A DNA stretch of 64,000 bases, taken from positions 4,613 to 68,612 of the forward strand of contig CAKOXK010000002.1 of assembly GCA_934130085.1 (NCBI GenBank), written 5' to 3'. This document shows, piece after piece, positions 19,240-46,674 of the stretch. The position numbers were made by a program, and so were the translations under genes. Position 1 is the stretch's first letter. Each line of letters begins with the position of its first letter. Under the pieces are notes generated by a model. It saw only the letters and a list, made by a program, of their open reading frames with translations, did not search any database and was not told where the DNA came from. This DNA is from an uncultured Clostridia bacterium (lineage in GTDB: Bacteria > Bacillota > Clostridia > TANB77 > CAG-508).

Positions 19240-19359
19240 GACATTCTAATAAAACAAAATAAGTTTTAATTACTAGAATGCATTTAACTTTCTGGTTTGA
19301 CAAAGTTTTAATTCCATAAAAAATTATAAAAGAATTTAGTCACAAATTTATTATACAAA

Positions 19360-19497
19360 ACAGGACTTAATATCATATTGTTTAAAACGACGCGTTAGCA
19401 ACCAAGCGAAGCGCAAATGTTTCTTTCTTCCGAAAGTTAATTTTGACGAAGAAAGAAATGAACAAGTCATTGAAAAAATTTATGATATTAAATCCTG
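19360..19497. repeat. copy 1 of a ~140-bp palindromic repeat element (outer ~31-bp inverted arms, GC-rich core GCGTTAGCAACCAAGCGAAGCGCAA, inner 11-bp hairpin with AGTTAATTTTGAC loop)
   Basis: Direct comparison with 28439-28576 and 46494-46635. Confidence 0.85.
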
Positions 19498-19530
19498 TTC
19501 TGTACAAATCAAATTAATTTTTTCTCTATA

Positions 19531-24356: not shown

Positions 24357-24383
24357 TTAGCACTCTTTTATTATGTTTGCTAA
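24357..24383 (-). promoter_or_regulatory. CIRCE operator (TTAGCAAAC-N9-GAGTGCTAA on the minus strand)
   Basis: A 9-N9-9 inverted repeat matching the TTAGCACTC-N9-GAGTGCTAA consensus with 2 mismatches, immediately upstream of hrcA. Confidence 0.75.
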
Positions 24384-24391
24384 CTTTCTAT

Positions 24392-24420
24392 ATATTATAA
24401 CCAAAATTAGCAAAAGTCAA
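24392..24420 (-). promoter_or_regulatory. candidate sigma-A promoter of the dnaK operon (TTGACT, about 15-17-nt spacer, TATAAT/TAATAT)
   Basis: -35 and -10 hexamers on the minus strand between the two CIRCE-like repeats. Confidence 0.45.
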
Positions 24421-24433
24421 TAGAGATTGCTAA
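24407..24433 (-). promoter_or_regulatory. second, degenerate CIRCE-like inverted repeat overlapping the -35 region (TTAGCAATC-N9-TTTTGCTAA)
   Basis: 9-N9-9 geometry with 4 mismatches to consensus. Confidence 0.4.
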
Positions 24434-24558
24434 TTTTTATGTGAAAATTTTGTGAAAACAAGAATAAAAAATATATATTATATTACTTTTAAAATTCCGC
24501 TTAAACATCACATAAATTACAAAGAATATATGTAGCCAAAATATAAAGAAACATAAAA

Positions 24559-28406: not shown

Positions 28407-28438
28407 AATATCCTTTCTAAATATATAAAATATCTGAA

Positions 28439-28576
28439 TAATTAATAATATATTGTTTTTTTTTATGCCGCGTAGCGATCAAGCGAAGCGCGAATGTTTC
28501 TTTCTTCTTACAGTTAATTTTGACTAATGAAGAAAGAAACGAACAAGGCATGAAAAAACAATATATTATTAATTAT
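28439..28576. repeat. copy 2 of the ~140-bp palindromic repeat element
   Basis: Outer arms ATAATTAATAATATATTGTTTTTT...GGCATG/CATGCC...; core GCGTAGCGATCAAGCGAAGCGCGAATGTTTCTTTCTTC...GAAGAAAGAAACGAACA. Confidence 0.85.
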
Positions 28577-28629
28577 AAACCATATTATTTGAAATGCCTC
28601 GTAGCGAATTCGAAATGCCATAAGAGATC

Positions 28630-39425: not shown

Positions 39426-41594
39426 CTAACCAGGCTCAGATATCTCATATTTGCTCATCCAGTAACCTGGTAACTCAACACCTGCAAAAGTAAATGCTTC
39501 AGGTACTTTATATATATGGTTTTCGTCTTCATGATTTGTAACATCCTTTGTTATAAAGTTAATGTCATATCCATTAGTACTTTTATCTATTTTATATTCA
39601 TATCTTGGTATCCACACCCAATATGCAATCTTGCCATTTGCTTTAGTTACAATGTTTGCCCATTTTCTTTGAGCATAATCATACCAATTTTGAGGTGCTG
39701 GTTGTGAAATTGGTATATCACTATGTTCTGTTCCATCATCATCCCAGTAAACATAATATGTGTTTTCTTTATCAAGATTATCTAAATTAACTTGTATTTT
39801 CTTTGATGATACGTTCTTTCTTCCTAACGGTATATTATCTTTCATTACACAAACATCATGATCTTTTGTTGAATCTATTCCAGTTATATTGCATGGCAAA
39901 ACGCCTGTAAATTTAAGATCTCCATCAATATATACTCTGTAGTCTTTTCCCTCTTCTTGGTTGTTTACTGAAACCGTTAGATTATTGTTGCAATCATAGC
40001 CTGTTGCGATTTCTTCTGCAGTATCTTTGGTCTCTGATATTTCATATTTGCTTATCCAATAACCTGATAATTCAACTCCCTTAAACGTAAATGCATCTGG
40101 TACTTTGTATATACTATTCTGACTGTTGCTATTAGTGAAATTTTTTGATACAAGTTCTAGACTTAGCCCTTCTTTTTGTGATGGCTCCATTTTATATCTA
40201 TAACGAGGAATCCATACCCAGAAAGTTACCATATTATTGGTCACAGTTACTATATTAGCATATTGTTTTTTACCATAGTTATACCAATTATCTGGAGCAG
40301 GACCTTTATCAATTCTGTTACCAATTTGCATATTTTCACCGTTCTCATCAAATGTTACATAATATGTGGCTTCTGGAGCCAAATTGCTTAAATCAACTAT
40401 CACCTTTTTTGTTGTAACCTGATTTCGTGCTATTATCTTACCATTTTTGGTTACACATATATCATATTTCTTATTTTCCTTTAGTCCGGTAATATCATGT
40501 GGTAAGCTCCCTTTATAATTTTCTATTCCATCTAGATAAACAGTGTAGTCTCCATTCTCCGTGTCATCACAATTTACAGTTATAAAATTAATATCAGTTC
40601 CAAGAGCTAATTGTGGTGAACCATTTTCGCAAACCTCATATTTGCTCATCCAGTAGCCTGCTAATTCCTGATTTGCAAATGTGAATGCTTCTGGTACTTG
40701 ATAATTTGAAGCAAGGCTTTCTGTTGTTCCATCTTCTTTTTTATATTCATTGGTTGTACTTATAAATCTTGCATCTACAGTTTGATCCGACTTAGTTATG
40801 TATGAATACCTTGGTATCCATACCCAATATGCAACCTGATTTCCTGTTACCGTTACTATATTTGCATACTTTTTCTGACTGCTACTATAATCATACCAAT
40901 CTGCTGGAGTATCTACCCTATCAATTCTGCCTGCTATACTTTGATTTCCGTTCTCATCATACGTTACATAGTATGTAGATGTAGGTTCCATATTTGATAA
41001 ATCTGGGGTTTGCATGAATACATCTCCAACTTTTTTGTAAGTTGTGCTTTCTGGAGTTTTATCACCTATATCTGTTTTTCCTCCATCATCTGAATCTTGT
41101 CCTTTGTTATCATCATCCTTACTGTCATCGCCACCATTTTTATCAACAAAATCTTGCCAGCTGTCATAGCTCCACACTGGAATATTTGCTTCAAAACACC
41201 ATTTAACACGTTTTTTATTGTTTGTATAAAAATAATATGTCTTGTTATTTTGAATGATTACTTCCTTTTCATAGTCGCTTTTTATTTCAGGTATAATCTT
41301 TTTTATTTTATCTTGCCCTACTAATCCAACACTTATTGTAAAATCAGGATTTTCAATTTGCTCCCCAGAAACATACATAGTTGCCTCTTCCATATATTTT
41401 TTCATCTGACTTACAAAAGCTGTTTTCTTGGTTCTTTCCAGTAAACCATTTTCACTAAAAACAGTAGCTATTGCAACGCCTGCAATAATTAGTAAAACTA
41501 TAATTGTAACTACAAGTGCTATTAAAGTTATACCATGGTTTTCCAAGCTGTTATTTTTATGTTTTAATTCAGGCTTTAACTTTTGTTTTTGCAT
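39426..41594 (-). CDS. type IV pilin-like (prepilin-type N-terminus) surface protein with three tandem ~200-aa repeat units; start overlaps the 3' end of the DGR RT gene
   Basis: N-terminus ...ENHGITLIALVVTIIVLLIIAGVAIA. The three repeats each end in GYWMSKYE(V/I) and contain WVWIPRY. The repeats are also visible at the DNA level (about 600-bp period). Confidence 0.6.
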   Translation of the reverse strand: MQKQKLKPELKHKNNSLENHGITLIALVVTIIVLLIIAGVAIATVFSENGLLERTKKTAFVSQMKKYMEEATMYVSGEQIENPDFTISVGLVGQDKIKKIIPEIKSDYEKEVIIQNNKTYYFYTNNKKRVKWCFEANIPVWSYDSWQDFVDKNGGDDSKDDDNKGQDSDDGGKTDIGDKTPESTTYKKVGDVFMQTPDLSNMEPTSTYYVTYDENGNQSIAGRIDRVDTPADWYDYSSSQKKYANIVTVTGNQVAYWVWIPRYSYITKSDQTVDARFISTTNEYKKEDGTTESLASNYQVPEAFTFANQELAGYWMSKYEVCENGSPQLALGTDINFITVNCDDTENGDYTVYLDGIENYKGSLPHDITGLKENKKYDICVTKNGKIIARNQVTTKKVIVDLSNLAPEATYYVTFDENGENMQIGNRIDKGPAPDNWYNYGKKQYANIVTVTNNMVTFWVWIPRYRYKMEPSQKEGLSLELVSKNFTNSNSQNSIYKVPDAFTFKGVELSGYWISKYEISETKDTAEEIATGYDCNNNLTVSVNNQEEGKDYRVYIDGDLKFTGVLPCNITGIDSTKDHDVCVMKDNIPLGRKNVSSKKIQVNLDNLDKENTYYVYWDDDGTEHSDIPISQPAPQNWYDYAQRKWANIVTKANGKIAYWVWIPRYEYKIDKSTNGYDINFITKDVTNHEDENHIYKVPEAFTFAGVELPGYWMSKYEISEPG

Positions 41595-42655
41595 TTTCCC
41601 TCCCCGTCTAATGGTTCTTCCTTATTTTCTCTATATATCCATTCACATTTGTCTATTACATTATCTATCAATTTTCTTGAGCTTGCATGAGAAGCATGAC
41701 CTATCCATGCATTTAAGCTTGCACTAACTTTAGTAATATTAAAATCTTTGTTTTTAAATTTTTGATTCCATTTTTTTATTTTTCTATAAATCTTTTTCTT
41801 ATTGCCTTTTAAAATTTTAATATGATTATCTTTTATTTTATATCCACAAAACTTCACACCTTGAGTATTTTTAAAATAATTAGTTTTTTCATTTAGTTCG
41901 AGTTCTAAGTTTTCTTTTAAATAATGTTCTAACTTATTTTTTACATCTTTGCATTCTTCTTTGTTATTCAATAATAATATAAAGTCATCCATGTACCTTA
42001 TATAGTACTTTACTTTTAACTTTTCCTTTACGTAGTGATCAAGCTGATTTAAATAGATATTTGCAAAAAATTGTGAAGTATAATTGCCTATTGGAATGCC
42101 CTTTTTGCTAGTAGTTCTTTGGTAAATGATATTTTTTGTAAATTTTAATAATTTCTTATCTTTTATATATCTTGATAAAATATTGTATAAAATTGATTTA
42201 TCTATGCTGTAGAAAAATTTTCTTATGTCGCATTTTAAAATGTAATAATCTTTATTTTTGTTATACATCTTTTTCATGTAATTTAATAATTGAATTATTG
42301 CTTTATGCACTCCTCTTCCTTCTATGCAAGCATAAGTATCACTTATAAACTTCGGAAGAAAAATTGGCTTTATAAATTCTTCTACATACCATTGATGCAT
42401 TACTCTATCTCTAAATGGTAGTGCCCAAATTATTCTCTCTTTTGGTTCATAGATTTTAAATTTTCTATAGCTTCCAATTACATATCTATCTTTGTAAATA
42501 TCTAATAGCATACTAGTAATGTTAGTTGCTAAGTTCATTTTGAATAAAACTACTTCTTTGTTTTCATGTTTTTCTTTTGAAGCTCTCTTATATGCTTTTA
42601 ACATTTTATCAAATTTAATCTTTTCTTCAAAAATATTACCTATCCTCTTTGGCAA
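41576..42655 (-). CDS. diversity-generating retroelement reverse transcriptase
   Basis: RT motifs including IPIGNYTSQFFANIYLNQLD (the DGR-specific IGxxxSQ) and RYMDDFILL (YMDD). No maturase or endonuclease domains. Adjacent avd and TR/VR. Confidence 0.88.
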   Translation of the reverse strand: MPKRIGNIFEEKIKFDKMLKAYKRASKEKHENKEVVLFKMNLATNITSMLLDIYKDRYVIGSYRKFKIYEPKERIIWALPFRDRVMHQWYVEEFIKPIFLPKFISDTYACIEGRGVHKAIIQLLNYMKKMYNKNKDYYILKCDIRKFFYSIDKSILYNILSRYIKDKKLLKFTKNIIYQRTTSKKGIPIGNYTSQFFANIYLNQLDHYVKEKLKVKYYIRYMDDFILLLNNKEECKDVKNKLEHYLKENLELELNEKTNYFKNTQGVKFCGYKIKDNHIKILKGNKKKIYRKIKKWNQKFKNKDFNITKVSASLNAWIGHASHASSRKLIDNVIDKCEWIYRENKEEPLDGEGKCKNKS

Positions 42656-42999
42656 CTTTTTATCCAGCCTCCTACCATCTTTCCTATTTCTTCAATTTGT
42701 GCATTCCAGTTCATATAGTTTTTATTTGTTATATATTTATATTCGTATGAAAGTCTAACCATTGTTTTTATTACATAGAGTTCTATATCAATTTCATTCA
42801 AGTATCTTACCTTTCTTTCTATGTCTGCTTCTTTCCAAGCCCAGATTACCTTTCTTAAAATATTATATAGTTCGTTTTTTATATCTGTACATAAATCGAA
42901 CCTTTCACTTTTAGGAAACTTTTGTAATAAGTTTTTTGAATAAAATATTAAATTGTTTATTTTTTCATAAATTATTAATCTATTATCTTTTTTAGGCAT
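42640..42999 (-). CDS. avd: accessory variability determinant (Avd, four-helix-bundle protein)
   Basis: 119 aa, basic and helical; resembles the Avd family. A 16-nt overlap with the RT gene implies translational coupling. Confidence 0.7.
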   Translation of the reverse strand: MPKKDNRLIIYEKINNLIFYSKNLLQKFPKSERFDLCTDIKNELYNILRKVIWAWKEADIERKVRYLNEIDIELYVIKTMVRLSYEYKYITNKNYMNWNAQIEEIGKMVGGWIKSCQRG

Positions 43000-43150
43000 T
43001 TAAAATTTTGAAACATCTCGCTTTCGTTTTTATTACTTGTAATTTGTTTCTTTAATGTTTTACCTGTTAAGGAAGGTGCTATACTTCTTTTGTACTTGTA
43101 CTTTTAGTCGAAAGGTTCCATGAAACCTTCCCCTCTTAAATTTATACAAG

Positions 43151-43290
43151 AGTCCCGAGCCAACACACAACACCGCACGAGACGAATTGTTACTGTTACT
43201 ATTACCATTGTTGTTATTATAGCCAAAGAGCGCATTGTTGCTACGTTTGAATACAGGGTTGCCAGAAGTAACAAAATTAGCGTTGGACGA
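43151..43290 (-). other. DGR template repeat (TR), 140 bp, intergenic between the target gene and avd
   Basis: 128/140 identity to 43473-43612. All 12 mismatches are at TR adenines on the coding (minus) strand. The TR is Asn-codon (AAC/AAT) rich in the target frame. Confidence 0.9.
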
Positions 43291-43468
43291 CAGTATAGTA
43301 CCTATGTTTTTAATTTATATTTTTTGAATATTTTATTAATATTATTTTTTGTTTTTTGTTTGTCTATTTTATGTATTTCAATTTATTCTTTATTATTATT
43401 TGTTTTTTTCATTTGTACTTTCGCAATTTATATTTTTTCGTCAATTGTTTTAAGTTCAAAGGGCAGAC

Positions 43469-44131
43469 TTAAAGTCCCGAGCCAACACACAACACCGCAC
43501 GAGACGAATCGCTACTGCTACTAACACCATTGTCGTTATTATAGCCAAAGAGCGCATTGTAGCTACGTTTGAATACAGGGCCGCCAGAAGTAACAAAACC
43601 AGCGCTGGACGAGCTTTTCCAGTTTTTGGTTTCTAGCGTAGCATCTCCTCTTTTTGCTACCTCTCCTGTATATATATTAACATATCTGCTATCTGCATTT
43701 TTCAATTTTGACATATAATCATTTGATGTATTGTAAATACCTGCTACATATTCGTATGTCCCATCTGCCATTTGAAAAATTCCTGTTGCATTGCCTGTTG
43801 TTGAAGCATCTGACCTACCTGATGGAGCACTTCCATAAGGTGATGCTGCAAGCATTGCTGCTGCTCCCCATTCAGTATTCTTAGCCATGTGTACATCAAC
43901 TCCATTATTGCTTGAATCTAAATAAGTGGTGCTATCTAATTGAGCTTTTTTACCTAGTGTTCCTCCTTCAACTTCCATTTGCCTTATTTTTACAAAGAAA
44001 TCATTTGCTGTTGTATTCTTTAAACTAGTTACCCCAGGTCTTGATTGAACCGCCGCATTTACTTTTCCTGTTAACATGAAAGCAGTTAAAATTCCAACAG
44101 TAAAAACTATTGCTGACTTTTTTATTTTCAT
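43469..44131 (-). CDS. DGR target protein: small secreted variable protein (220 aa, SPase-I-type signal peptide, C-terminal variable region)
   Basis: Signal peptide MKIKKSAIVFTVGILTAFMLTGKVNA; the last ~46 codons are the VR, homologous to the TR through the stop codon. Confidence 0.85.
   Translation of the reverse strand: MKIKKSAIVFTVGILTAFMLTGKVNAAVQSRPGVTSLKNTTANDFFVKIRQMEVEGGTLGKKAQLDSTTYLDSSNNGVDVHMAKNTEWGAAAMLAASPYGSAPSGRSDASTTGNATGIFQMADGTYEYVAGIYNTSNDYMSKLKNADSRYVNIYTGEVAKRGDATLETKNWKSSSSAGFVTSGGPVFKRSYNALFGYNNDNGVSSSSDSSRAVLCVGSGL
43473..43612 (-). other. DGR variable repeat (VR) at the 3' end of the target gene
   Basis: See the TR entry. Substitutions are at AAY codon positions 1 and 2 (for example TR AAT to VR GAT, AAC to AGC/GAC/TAC/GGC). 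Confidence 0.9.
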
Positions 44132-46408: not shown

Positions 46409-46493
46409 GTTAACAAGAATAAGCCTTAAAGAATATTTCATTTTTCAGTAAATAGAAAAGCTCTATAACTTTCTTCATTATACAAAATATAGA

Positions 46494-46635
46494 AGAAATC
46501 GAAAGATATATTGTTTTTCAATTTTGCGTTAGCGATCAAGCGAAGCGCGAATGTTTCTTTCTTCCTAAAGTTAATCTTGACTAGTGAAGAAAGAAACGAA
46601 CAAAAAATTGAAAAACAATATATCTTTCGATTTCT
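46494..46635. repeat. copy 3 of the ~140-bp palindromic repeat element, between convergent SDR and rplQ genes
   Basis: Perfect 32-bp outer inverted arms AGAAATCGAAAGATATATTGTTTTTCAATTTT / AAAATTGAAAAACAATATATCTTTCGATTTCT; the core is identical to copy 2 except at 2-3 positions. Confidence 0.85.
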
Positions 46636-46674
46636 TTAATTAATTATAATTATTAATAAATTATAATTATACAA

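Follow-up and report, generated by a model that had tools for sequence, protein, structure and literature searches.

Palindromic repeats scattered through a genome influence how operons end, how stable messages are, how DNA recombines, and how well genomes assemble. Hairpin-forming MITEs (transposable elements of the miniature inverted-repeat type) include the Correia/NEMIS repeats of Neisseria, ERIC/IRU of enterobacteria, bcr1 of the Bacillus cereus group, and RUP and BOX of pneumococcus. The transcribed hairpins of the REP (repetitive extragenic palindromic), ERIC, and Correia repeats are reported to end transcription, to block 3' exonucleases, or to be cleaved by RNase III. Almost all known palindromic repeat families come from cultured Proteobacteria and a few Firmicutes; in contrast, the family described here belongs to uncultured gut Clostridia. 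It was recognized in a 64,000-nucleotide stretch of DNA from an uncultured Clostridia bacterium (contig CAKOXK010000002.1; hereafter, the whole stretch is called the window) as a palindromic element of roughly 140 bp with a GC-rich core. Judged by sequence comparison, it represents a previously undescribed dispersed repeat family that is so far confined to a clade of low-GC uncultured gut Clostridia.

The element most likely behaves as a small, selfish piece of mobile DNA and not as a gene. The best reading, that it is a small, non-coding, non-autonomous DNA repeat of the MITE/REP kind living in or beside terminator hairpins, has about an even chance of being right. The whole unit (arms, variable hairpin, and core) is copied to unrelated intergenic sites behind genes. 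Individual copies degenerate, some have lost stretches from their interior or exist only as halves, close lineages differ in whether they carry a copy, and the core can invert. Moreover, all helices keep pairing through double changes that are almost exclusively of the Watson-Crick type. The usual design of such repeats is reversed: the center is invariant and asymmetric, and the arms drift freely but are always complementary.

Part of a 125,686-bp contig assembled from a human gut metagenome (ENA ERZ27287188, k141_884380) corresponds, in reverse complement, to the window. All of the data are metagenome assemblies, and copy numbers are lower bounds.

Structure of the Element

The window, which has approx. 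29% G+C and carries nearly all of its genes on one strand, contains three copies in one shared orientation (Table 1). Direct reading and a covariance model (R1) place them where the original prediction had put them; the model, which was trained on 24 family members and gives only rough E-values, matches exactly these three sites in the window with scores of 96-112 bits (E 1e-17 to 1e-21). The 27-nt core AAGCGAAGCGCRAATGTTTCTTTCTTC is found three times, against 0.00 occurrences expected from 100 shuffles. The predicted internal layout also holds: the outer arms of the window copies are 24-38 nt long and 89-100% complementary, the inner stem GTTTCTTTCTTC/GAAGAAAGAAAC is perfect over 12 bp in copies 2 and 3 and over 11 bp in copy 1, and the predicted folding of the copies on either strand is far better than that of shuffled sequences (z -7 to -12.6). 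When the three copies are aligned, the center is nearly identical, and the outermost arms differ among copies yet still pair.

Read in gene sense (the window - strand), the element begins with an AT-rich arm containing the block ATAT(A/T)AT, a pyrimidine-rich internal loop, and the 5-bp helix P1b. These are followed by CTTGTTG(TCGC), the variable hairpin P2, (GCTC)CATTCGCGCTTCGCTTGRTCGCTA(A)CGC, P1b', and the other arm; the fold is a single three-way junction. Across the family, the arms are AT-rich and 20-38 bp long, or longer if imperfect flanks are counted. They are inverted repeats in every copy, but their sequence is common only within a genome or subfamily; only the ATAT(A/T)AT block is general among them.

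The pairing of the helices is maintained despite this divergence. In the arms and P1b, 90.8% of the alignment cells are paired, compared with 66% in shuffles, and sliding the partners against each other lowers the pairing to 36-53%. Changes on both sides are seen at 19 of the 20 pairs of arm and P1b, including all 5 pairs of P1b. Watson-Crick pairs account for 424 of 480 pairs, with 12 G:T and 5 A:C; wobble thus amounts to only 2.5%. P2 cannot be aligned in register; its stems, read directly, are all paired and all different among lineages: GCAGG/CCTGC, GCAGA/TCTGC, GGCGACC/GGTCGCC, GAAAGTAGC/GCTACTTTC, GAAAGTGAT/ATCACTTTC, GAAAATGTC/GACATTTTC, and TTTCTTTCTTC/GAAGAAAGAAA. Even within the window species, the P2 stem of a further copy (copy 5, see below), TTGCAATCTTC/GAAGATTGCA, has a different sequence and is still paired.

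A conserved, covarying structure could also belong to an independent small non-coding RNA gene, encoded on either strand and present in multiple copies. Many structured RNAs are rich in purines where they are unpaired, as the element is on the window + strand, and promoter-like hexamers lie 30-50 nt upstream on the + strand for copies 1 and 3. However, such promoter-like matches are no commoner than in shuffles, no conserved promoter or terminator is found family-wide, and no Rfam family matches. Stems of 24-38 bp are perfect, wobble pairs being nearly absent, and the copies decay, flip, and occur as halves. An RNA gene of this kind is very improbable, and the discrete structured small RNA of approx. 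140 nt, one candidate of the original prediction, is not supported, given stems almost free of wobble, several copies that lie past a terminator, and a core that can flip. Pairs of -35/-10-like motifs formed by core plus arm were also considered and dropped, as their spacing varies between 14 and 24 nt.

The GC-Rich Core and its Mini-Hairpins

The 27-nt GC-rich core is near-invariant across hosts, whereas the arms and P2 diverge. On the window + strand, it reads GCG(T)TAGC ... GCGNAGC, i.e., two consensus DNA mini-hairpin motifs of the type GCGNAGC/GCGNNAGC. Twelve such motifs occur in the window (128 kb with both strands counted), and six of the 12 lie inside the three elements, two in each and without exception on the + strand. 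The second motif differs among family members only at its free loop base (A, C, or T), and in one copy (L046:6539-6669) a paired GG/CC insertion lengthens its stem to give GGGC-GAA-GCCC. The GCGNAGC-type mini-hairpin has an extraordinary stability in DNA form, far above that of its RNA form, and it is known from phage G4-type priming sites, from ssiA, and from the single-strand promoters of phage N4 (PMC13037366). As the motif was noticed after the fact, it is a lead and no proof.

If the lead is taken at face value, the element could be a folded single-stranded DNA signal, i.e., a chromosomal origin-like, priming, or mobilization site on which the mini-hairpin strand would be active and the T-shaped junction would be read by an HUH-type nuclease, a primase, or a polymerase. 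By analogy with parvoviral terminal repeats, such a signal might exist in flip and flop forms, and it might insert specifically at the tips of terminator hairpins. In its favor, each copy has two consensus mini-hairpins on one strand that vary only in the free loop base, the insertion in one stem is paired, and such motifs are far more stable in DNA than in RNA. The T-shaped three-way junction has both flip and flop forms (see the rplQ locus below), and the mini-hairpin strand, folded as DNA, is predicted to be better by 1.4-3.9 kcal/mol in four of four pairs.

The sequence TAGCGA in the element moreover resembles the CS-6 box of ssoA, the single-strand origin of rolling-circle plasmids, in which an RSB box (TTATGCCGAGAAAATTT) and CS-6 (TAGCGT) lie approx. 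50-65 nt apart in a long hairpin (PMC4598088). In the present element, only TTATGCCG (in copy 2 alone) and TAGCGA are found, adjacent to each other and in a chromosomal setting; membership in the ssoA type is rejected because the resemblance, over 6-8 nt only, is too short and wrongly spaced. More generally, the elements are chromosomal and stand behind housekeeping genes, blastn against plasmids and phages is empty, and in most copies the mini-hairpin strand is not the expected lagging-strand template. With the motif itself recognized only in hindsight, a single-strand signal of this sort is improbable as the element's identity.

Distribution of the Family

The original prediction counted three copies; all three are real, but the family is larger. 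A fourth copy lies on the same contig in the same orientation, between a KAP NTPase gene and spoVT, and is present in eight of 10 strain contigs. Copy 5 is intact upstream of hrcA in two strains (L032 and L033), and the window strain retains only a relic of it, which has lost P2, keeps a single intact arm, and carries a mutated, partly deleted core; the relic is not picked up by the covariance model. A relaxed pattern, CATTYGCGCTNCGCTTRRTYGCTA, drawn from the best-conserved part, identified 16 loci in approx. nine metagenome-assembled genomes (MAGs), all labeled uncultured Clostridia bacterium and obtained from rabbit, sheep jejunum, and other sources. The covariance model recovers all of the known copies and one extra in L046, which brings the further copies in these approx. 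nine MAGs to 17. The core is conserved in related genomes and is not limited to the three loci of the window.

The single 125-kb contig carries four copies and a relic, and single MAGs contain at least three to five copies. The unit measures 117-190 bp across the family and, as predicted for the window, no open reading frame (ORF) is common to the copies. The repeats are hence small (less than approx. 300 bp), non-coding, and dispersed in several copies per genome, as expected of MITEs. In particular, MAG E13__bin84 has four copies at unrelated loci that are near-identical over the central approx. 120 nt, three of them over approx. 170 nt. Arms and P2 are most alike within one genome. At one locus (L048), a half copy stands together with a full copy, in an arrangement like that beside copy 2 (Table 1).

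The family is distinct from anything described in the collections searched, in line with the novelty originally claimed for it. There was no match to Rfam at the gathering threshold in the window elements or in 13 loci, and an E-value cut below that threshold returned only chance matches to long-hairpin microRNA models. Comparison by blastn with plasmid and phage collections gave nothing or chance AT-rich pieces, and thus no sequence similarity to any record in them. The exact 26-nt core had no match in a set of one genome per species, and the exact core pattern had none in viral contigs or in JGI metagenomes. The motif was likewise not found in 200 of the 408 supplementary files of a catalogue of structured RNAs from the human microbiome, and a tRNA scan of the window found none. 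No MAG locus is orthologous to the window loci.

Decay, Inversion, and Presence or Absence

Copies of the element are lost and damaged among close relatives. Two strains (L025 and L028) have a 46-nt internal deletion in copy 2, and a 21-nt piece of the fragment of a second copy that lies beside it is missing in some strains. In the closest lineage, whose S10 and S11 proteins are identical and whose DnaJ falls within the same 90% cluster, no element is present at any of the five loci across approx. 49 kb; only plain terminators are found, and the gap between the GH15 gene and radA is 25 bp. A sister species (DnaJ 81% identity) has a degenerate relative after dnaJ, and species at approx. 70% identity have none in 56 kb. 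Presence and absence of the element thus change quickly.

In a related species (DnaJ 71% identical), a ToxN-type toxin gene (L061:11387-11896) directly follows dnaJ, at the place of copy 1. Accessory DNA thus seems to land often in the gap behind dnaJ.

At the rplQ locus (copy 3), the core is in the forward orientation in L050, L051, and L054 and inverted in L052, L053, and L056, as seen in the strand change of the covariance-model matches. The arms around the flipped core are similar, with paired changes: TTCAATTTT/AAAATTGAA versus TTCGCTTTT/AAAAGCGAA. The two orientations correspond to two haplotypes, which also differ by flank indels and arm changes. Inverted repeats around an asymmetric segment, with both orientations at one locus, are also what would be expected of an inverton, i.e., a site-specific invertible switch that turns a neighboring gene on or off. 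Nevertheless, since orientation tracks haplotype, a single old inversion is indicated rather than rapid switching, and the other four loci are uniform in all of the 3-8 strains seen. No recombinase gene is found among the called genes of the loci, the core lacks a convincing promoter or terminator, and the neighbors are housekeeping genes. An invertase would, moreover, need conserved arms, and these are not. Taken together, a switch of this kind is extremely improbable.

Genomic Placement and Orientation

As predicted, the window copies follow dnaJ, a GH15 gene, and rplQ (Pfam labels). Copies for which both neighbors are known always lie behind a 3' end: of 19, none is between divergent genes, 14 are between co-directional genes, and five are between convergent genes. 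This extragenic position behind genes, with avoidance of divergent gaps, is that of REP sequences and bacterial interspersed mosaic elements (BIMEs). Nine of the 10 genes upstream of MAG copies are ordinary chromosomal ones (PASTA kinase, PBP, DnaB, PFL, SpoIIIAE, and others), and the tenth has no Pfam match. The orientation of the element matches that of the upstream gene in 17 of 20 copies and by 11 to 3 among co-directional pairs, and three copies are antisense to both neighbors. The orientation fits the GC skew in 15 of 22 copies, which does not surpass its fit with the upstream gene. The shared orientation originally noted holds within the window but not beyond it, where three relatives and three strains show the opposite one.

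Two neighboring gene sets may be mentioned here. In a region of MAG Lapin-005__bin108 (L046:5030-6669), the gene for the replicative helicase (DnaB family, 441 aa) is bracketed by two copies in the same orientation, which may be chance. Between recD2 and spoVT stand a KAP-family P-loop NTPase gene and, upstream of it, a small phosphoribosyltransferase-like gene (L003:5294-7255); copy 4 lies at the 3' end of the NTPase gene.

Because no copy lies in a divergent gap and most share the orientation of the upstream gene, an RNA-level effect on 3' ends may exist as a side effect or secondary role. A stronger version holds that the element is primarily a cis-acting RNA of the 3' untranslated region and that, as part of the upstream gene's transcript, it folds into a very long hairpin, which terminates transcription, blocks 3' exonucleases, or is cut by RNase III; in that case, selection acting on the RNA would maintain the helices. 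In addition to placement and co-orientation, this version can draw on the sister species, in which the palindrome after dnaJ is the sole hairpin and is followed by a T-run, and on some copies that lie inside terminator-like outer stems and hence would be transcribed. On the gene-sense strand, there is a slight excess of G:T over A:C pairs (12 to 5, from partly redundant rows); a test of the functional strand by wobble pairs was discarded, as these events are too few and partly redundant.

Other observations speak against a primary RNA role. Copies 1, 4, and 5, as well as copy 3 of strain L051, lie downstream of a normal intrinsic terminator; since several copies are placed in this way, transcription of the copies is unlikely to be heavy. 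Structured RNAs so diverged normally gather many G-U pairs, whereas wobble is rare here. The copies decay, they are absent without replacement in the closest lineage, and three are antisense to both neighbors. Most copies have no directly following T-run, and a terminator scan finds no terminator-like site at the three window copies, which thus do not qualify as intrinsic terminators (G+C-rich stem, short loop, and direct T-run). A cis-acting RNA as the element's main identity is therefore unlikely.

The flanks of some copies also resemble terminators. Palindromy often runs 9-14 bp past the end of the resemblance between copies: it is perfect over 13 bp at copy 3, covers 8 of 9 positions at copy 1 and 10 of 13 at copy 2, forms a perfect 14-bp inverted repeat at L039, and covers 7 of 8 positions at L044. 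Flanks inspected for target-site duplications tend to be inverted rather than direct repeats. These copy-specific stems have a higher G+C content at L039, L044, copy 1, and copy 3, where an A-tract precedes and a T-tract follows them, and they look like an intrinsic terminator split at its tip. Such an appearance may result from insertion into the tips of existing terminator hairpins or from outward growth of the palindrome by arm conversion.

A Possible Mechanism of Propagation

Of the candidates named in the original prediction, the REP/MITE-like element is the one favored by dispersed near-identical copies, decay, halves, presence and absence, and core inversion. The protein-binding site also named there is a reasonable inference from the near-invariant 27-nt segment. 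The complementarity of the arms would be kept mainly at the DNA level, through recombination or template switching between the arms that leads to gene conversion and, occasionally, to inversion; this process is proposed because it would account for perfect pairing, paired changes, and inversion together. Selection for a compact hairpin may add to it. The core would be a cis site for propagation, read by a putative trans-acting protein when the element is folded, either as a single strand or as a cruciform, into a three-way junction, one strand of which bears two very stable GNA-type mini-hairpins; the arms and P2 would need only to pair. Because copies decay freely, while intact copies across hosts keep the core, we infer that the core serves propagation rather than the host. 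New copies would land in, or build, terminator-like hairpins at gene ends, where a self-folding insert may do little harm and could thus persist; a copy that is transcribed would merely lengthen the 3' hairpin of the message.

Several points weigh against a MITE/REP-like mobile repeat. No transposase, partner gene, or autonomous relative is present among the called genes near the copies. No clean empty site that would show the exact ends and any target-site duplication was found, the intergenic DNA of the sister lineage being too diverged to align. A conserved center with free arms is the reverse of classic MITEs, whose terminal repeats, as transposase binding sites, are conserved among copies, and no extra arm copies were found in 65 loci. 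From a DNA parasite that is purely neutral, one would not expect the bias in orientation (11 to 3 among co-directional pairs), and this bias could point to a role at the RNA level. The core could just as well be conserved because it serves the host. Finally, the split-terminator picture is clear for only some copies (it is weak at L035 and absent at copy 2), and outward growth of the palindrome would mimic it.

Among bacteria, the family clearly exemplifies how a small palindrome undergoes concerted evolution and inversion. Two ideas are raised by it: such elements may settle in terminator hairpins because the terminator goes on working when the insert folds on itself, and DNA-specific mini-hairpins may mark a site that is read in single-stranded form. 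In practice, the covariance model offers a means of annotating the repeats in MAGs and of labeling them as strain markers and as likely contig break points.

Features of the Window

Table 1. Positions of the repeat copies, their parts, and other features in the window. For the repeat elements, the - strand is that of the covariance model, i.e., the sense of the upstream gene, and implies no claim on the functional strand.
Feature	Position	Strand	Description
Copy 1 with full arms	19351-19507	-	Arms 19351-19377 / 19481-19507; 96.6 bits; direct reading 19360-19497, model match 19361-19498; after dnaJ and its ordinary terminator, before a LytR-family gene
Copy 1, mini-hairpin motifs	19392-19399, 19406-19412		
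Copy 1, P2	19420-19430 / 19448-19458		
hrcA promoter region	~24360-24440	-	Consensus-like TTGACT-17-TATAAT
Decayed relic of copy 5	24470-24545	-	Between a peptidyl-prolyl isomerase gene and hrcA
Copy 2	28436-28579	-	Model match, 112.2 bits, E 2.4e-21; direct reading 28439-28576; flanked by the stop of the GH15 gene (28630) and the start of radA (28406)
Copy 2, outer arm	28438-28461		Pairs with 28553-28576; 24 nt, 100% complementary, AT-rich, with the family block ATAT(A/T)AT
Copy 2, helix P1b	28465-28469		5 bp, ATGCC with GGCAT at 28547-28551; a T-rich internal loop parts it from the outer arm
Copy 2, invariant GC-rich segment	28470-28489	+	GCGTAGC (28470-28476), linker GATCAA, GCGAAGC (28483-28489)
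Copy 2, variable hairpin P2	28496-28540		Perfect 12-bp stem GTTTCTTTCTTC/GAAGAAAGAAAC, 21-nt loop
Copy 2, opposite outer arm	28553-28576		Partner of 28438-28461
Fragment of a second copy	28590-28620	-	Partial core and arm start (GGCATTTCGAATTCGCTACGAGGCATTTC, gene sense); between the GH15 stop and copy 2
Diversity-generating retroelement	39426-44131	-	Appears complete
ORF of 722 aa	39426-41594	-	Downstream; three ~600-nt internal repeats; no Pfam match
Reverse transcriptase gene	41576-42655	-	
bAvd-like gene	42640-42999	-	
RT-14 RNA (Rfam)	43009-43152		63.7 bits
Likely template repeat	43151-43290		Beside the RT-14 motif
ORF of 220 aa	43469-44131	-	
Likely variable repeat	43473-43612		3' end of the 220-aa ORF
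Copy 3	46493-46636	-	Arms 46493-46530 / 46599-46636, 38 nt, 95% complementary; direct reading 46494-46635, model match 46494-46636; between convergent rplQ and a short-chain dehydrogenase gene

Several other features lie in or near the window. What appears to be a complete diversity-generating retroelement comprises an RT-14 RNA, a bAvd-like gene, a reverse transcriptase gene, and a pair of 140-nt direct repeats that are 91% identical; no link between it and the palindromic repeat was seen. Just downstream of the relic of copy 5, the hrcA promoter has an inverted repeat on either side (TTAGCAATCTC...TTGCTAA and TTAGCA...GAGTGCTAA); the two are probable CIRCE operators belonging to the dnaK operon. 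A UPF0236-family transposase gene (L013:17044-18510) is located at the contig end, approx. 6 kb beyond window position 1, and there is no core-like sequence near it.

Comparison with Known Systems

Several systems in which palindromes are folded or flipped share single features with the element. The attC sites of integrons are imperfect palindromes of 57-141 bp at gene 3' ends, co-oriented and recognized as folded single strands, with conserved outer boxes (GTTRRRY) and a free center. The co-oriented palindrome at a 3' end is thus common to both; however, the pattern of conservation is reversed in the present element, which is accompanied by neither an integrase nor a cassette array. Phage G4 oric, RSF1010 ssiA, and the ssoA of rolling-circle plasmids, which act in single-stranded DNA, are alike in their multi-hairpin folds of approx. 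100-150 nt, GNA-type mini-hairpins, and dependence on orientation, and T-shaped parvoviral terminal repeats are alike in forming a three-way junction with flip and flop forms. Unlike these sites, which belong to phages, plasmids, and viral ends, the element is chromosomal and multi-copy and lacks any context of a Rep protein, a primase, or a plasmid.

The flip at the rplQ locus has a counterpart in chloroplasts. In small hairpin-loop inversions of chloroplast DNA, a short segment between inverted repeats of 11-24 bp flips among close relatives by recombination in the hairpin's stem (PMC12928735). These inversions, in contrast to the present repeat, affect single loci and do not constitute a dispersed family with a conserved core. 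Kim and Lee are said to have reported in 2005 that chloroplast hairpins are mostly located just downstream of genes.

REP/BIME repeats, as well as REPINs with their REP-associated tyrosine transposases (RAYTs, of the HUH type), are closer. They, too, are extragenic palindromes behind genes, in co-directional and convergent gaps and rarely in divergent ones; their recognition is believed to involve the folded single strand, and binding of host proteins is known. Nonetheless, REP units are 20-40 nt long, with a conserved GTAG and a very high copy number, in contrast to a three-way junction of 120-190 nt; neither a GTAG-type unit nor an HUH/RAYT gene is found, the latter among the called genes of the loci. 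Hairpin MITEs, in turn, are likewise non-coding, intergenic, and dispersed units of approx. 100-170 bp with inverted-repeat arms that form a long hairpin once single-stranded or transcribed, genome-specific subfamilies, and decayed copies. They differ in having conserved terminal repeats and known target duplications, where the present repeat has an invariant center and drifting, compensated arms. A member of no named family, the element works most like the hairpin-forming MITEs and the REP/BIME repeats.

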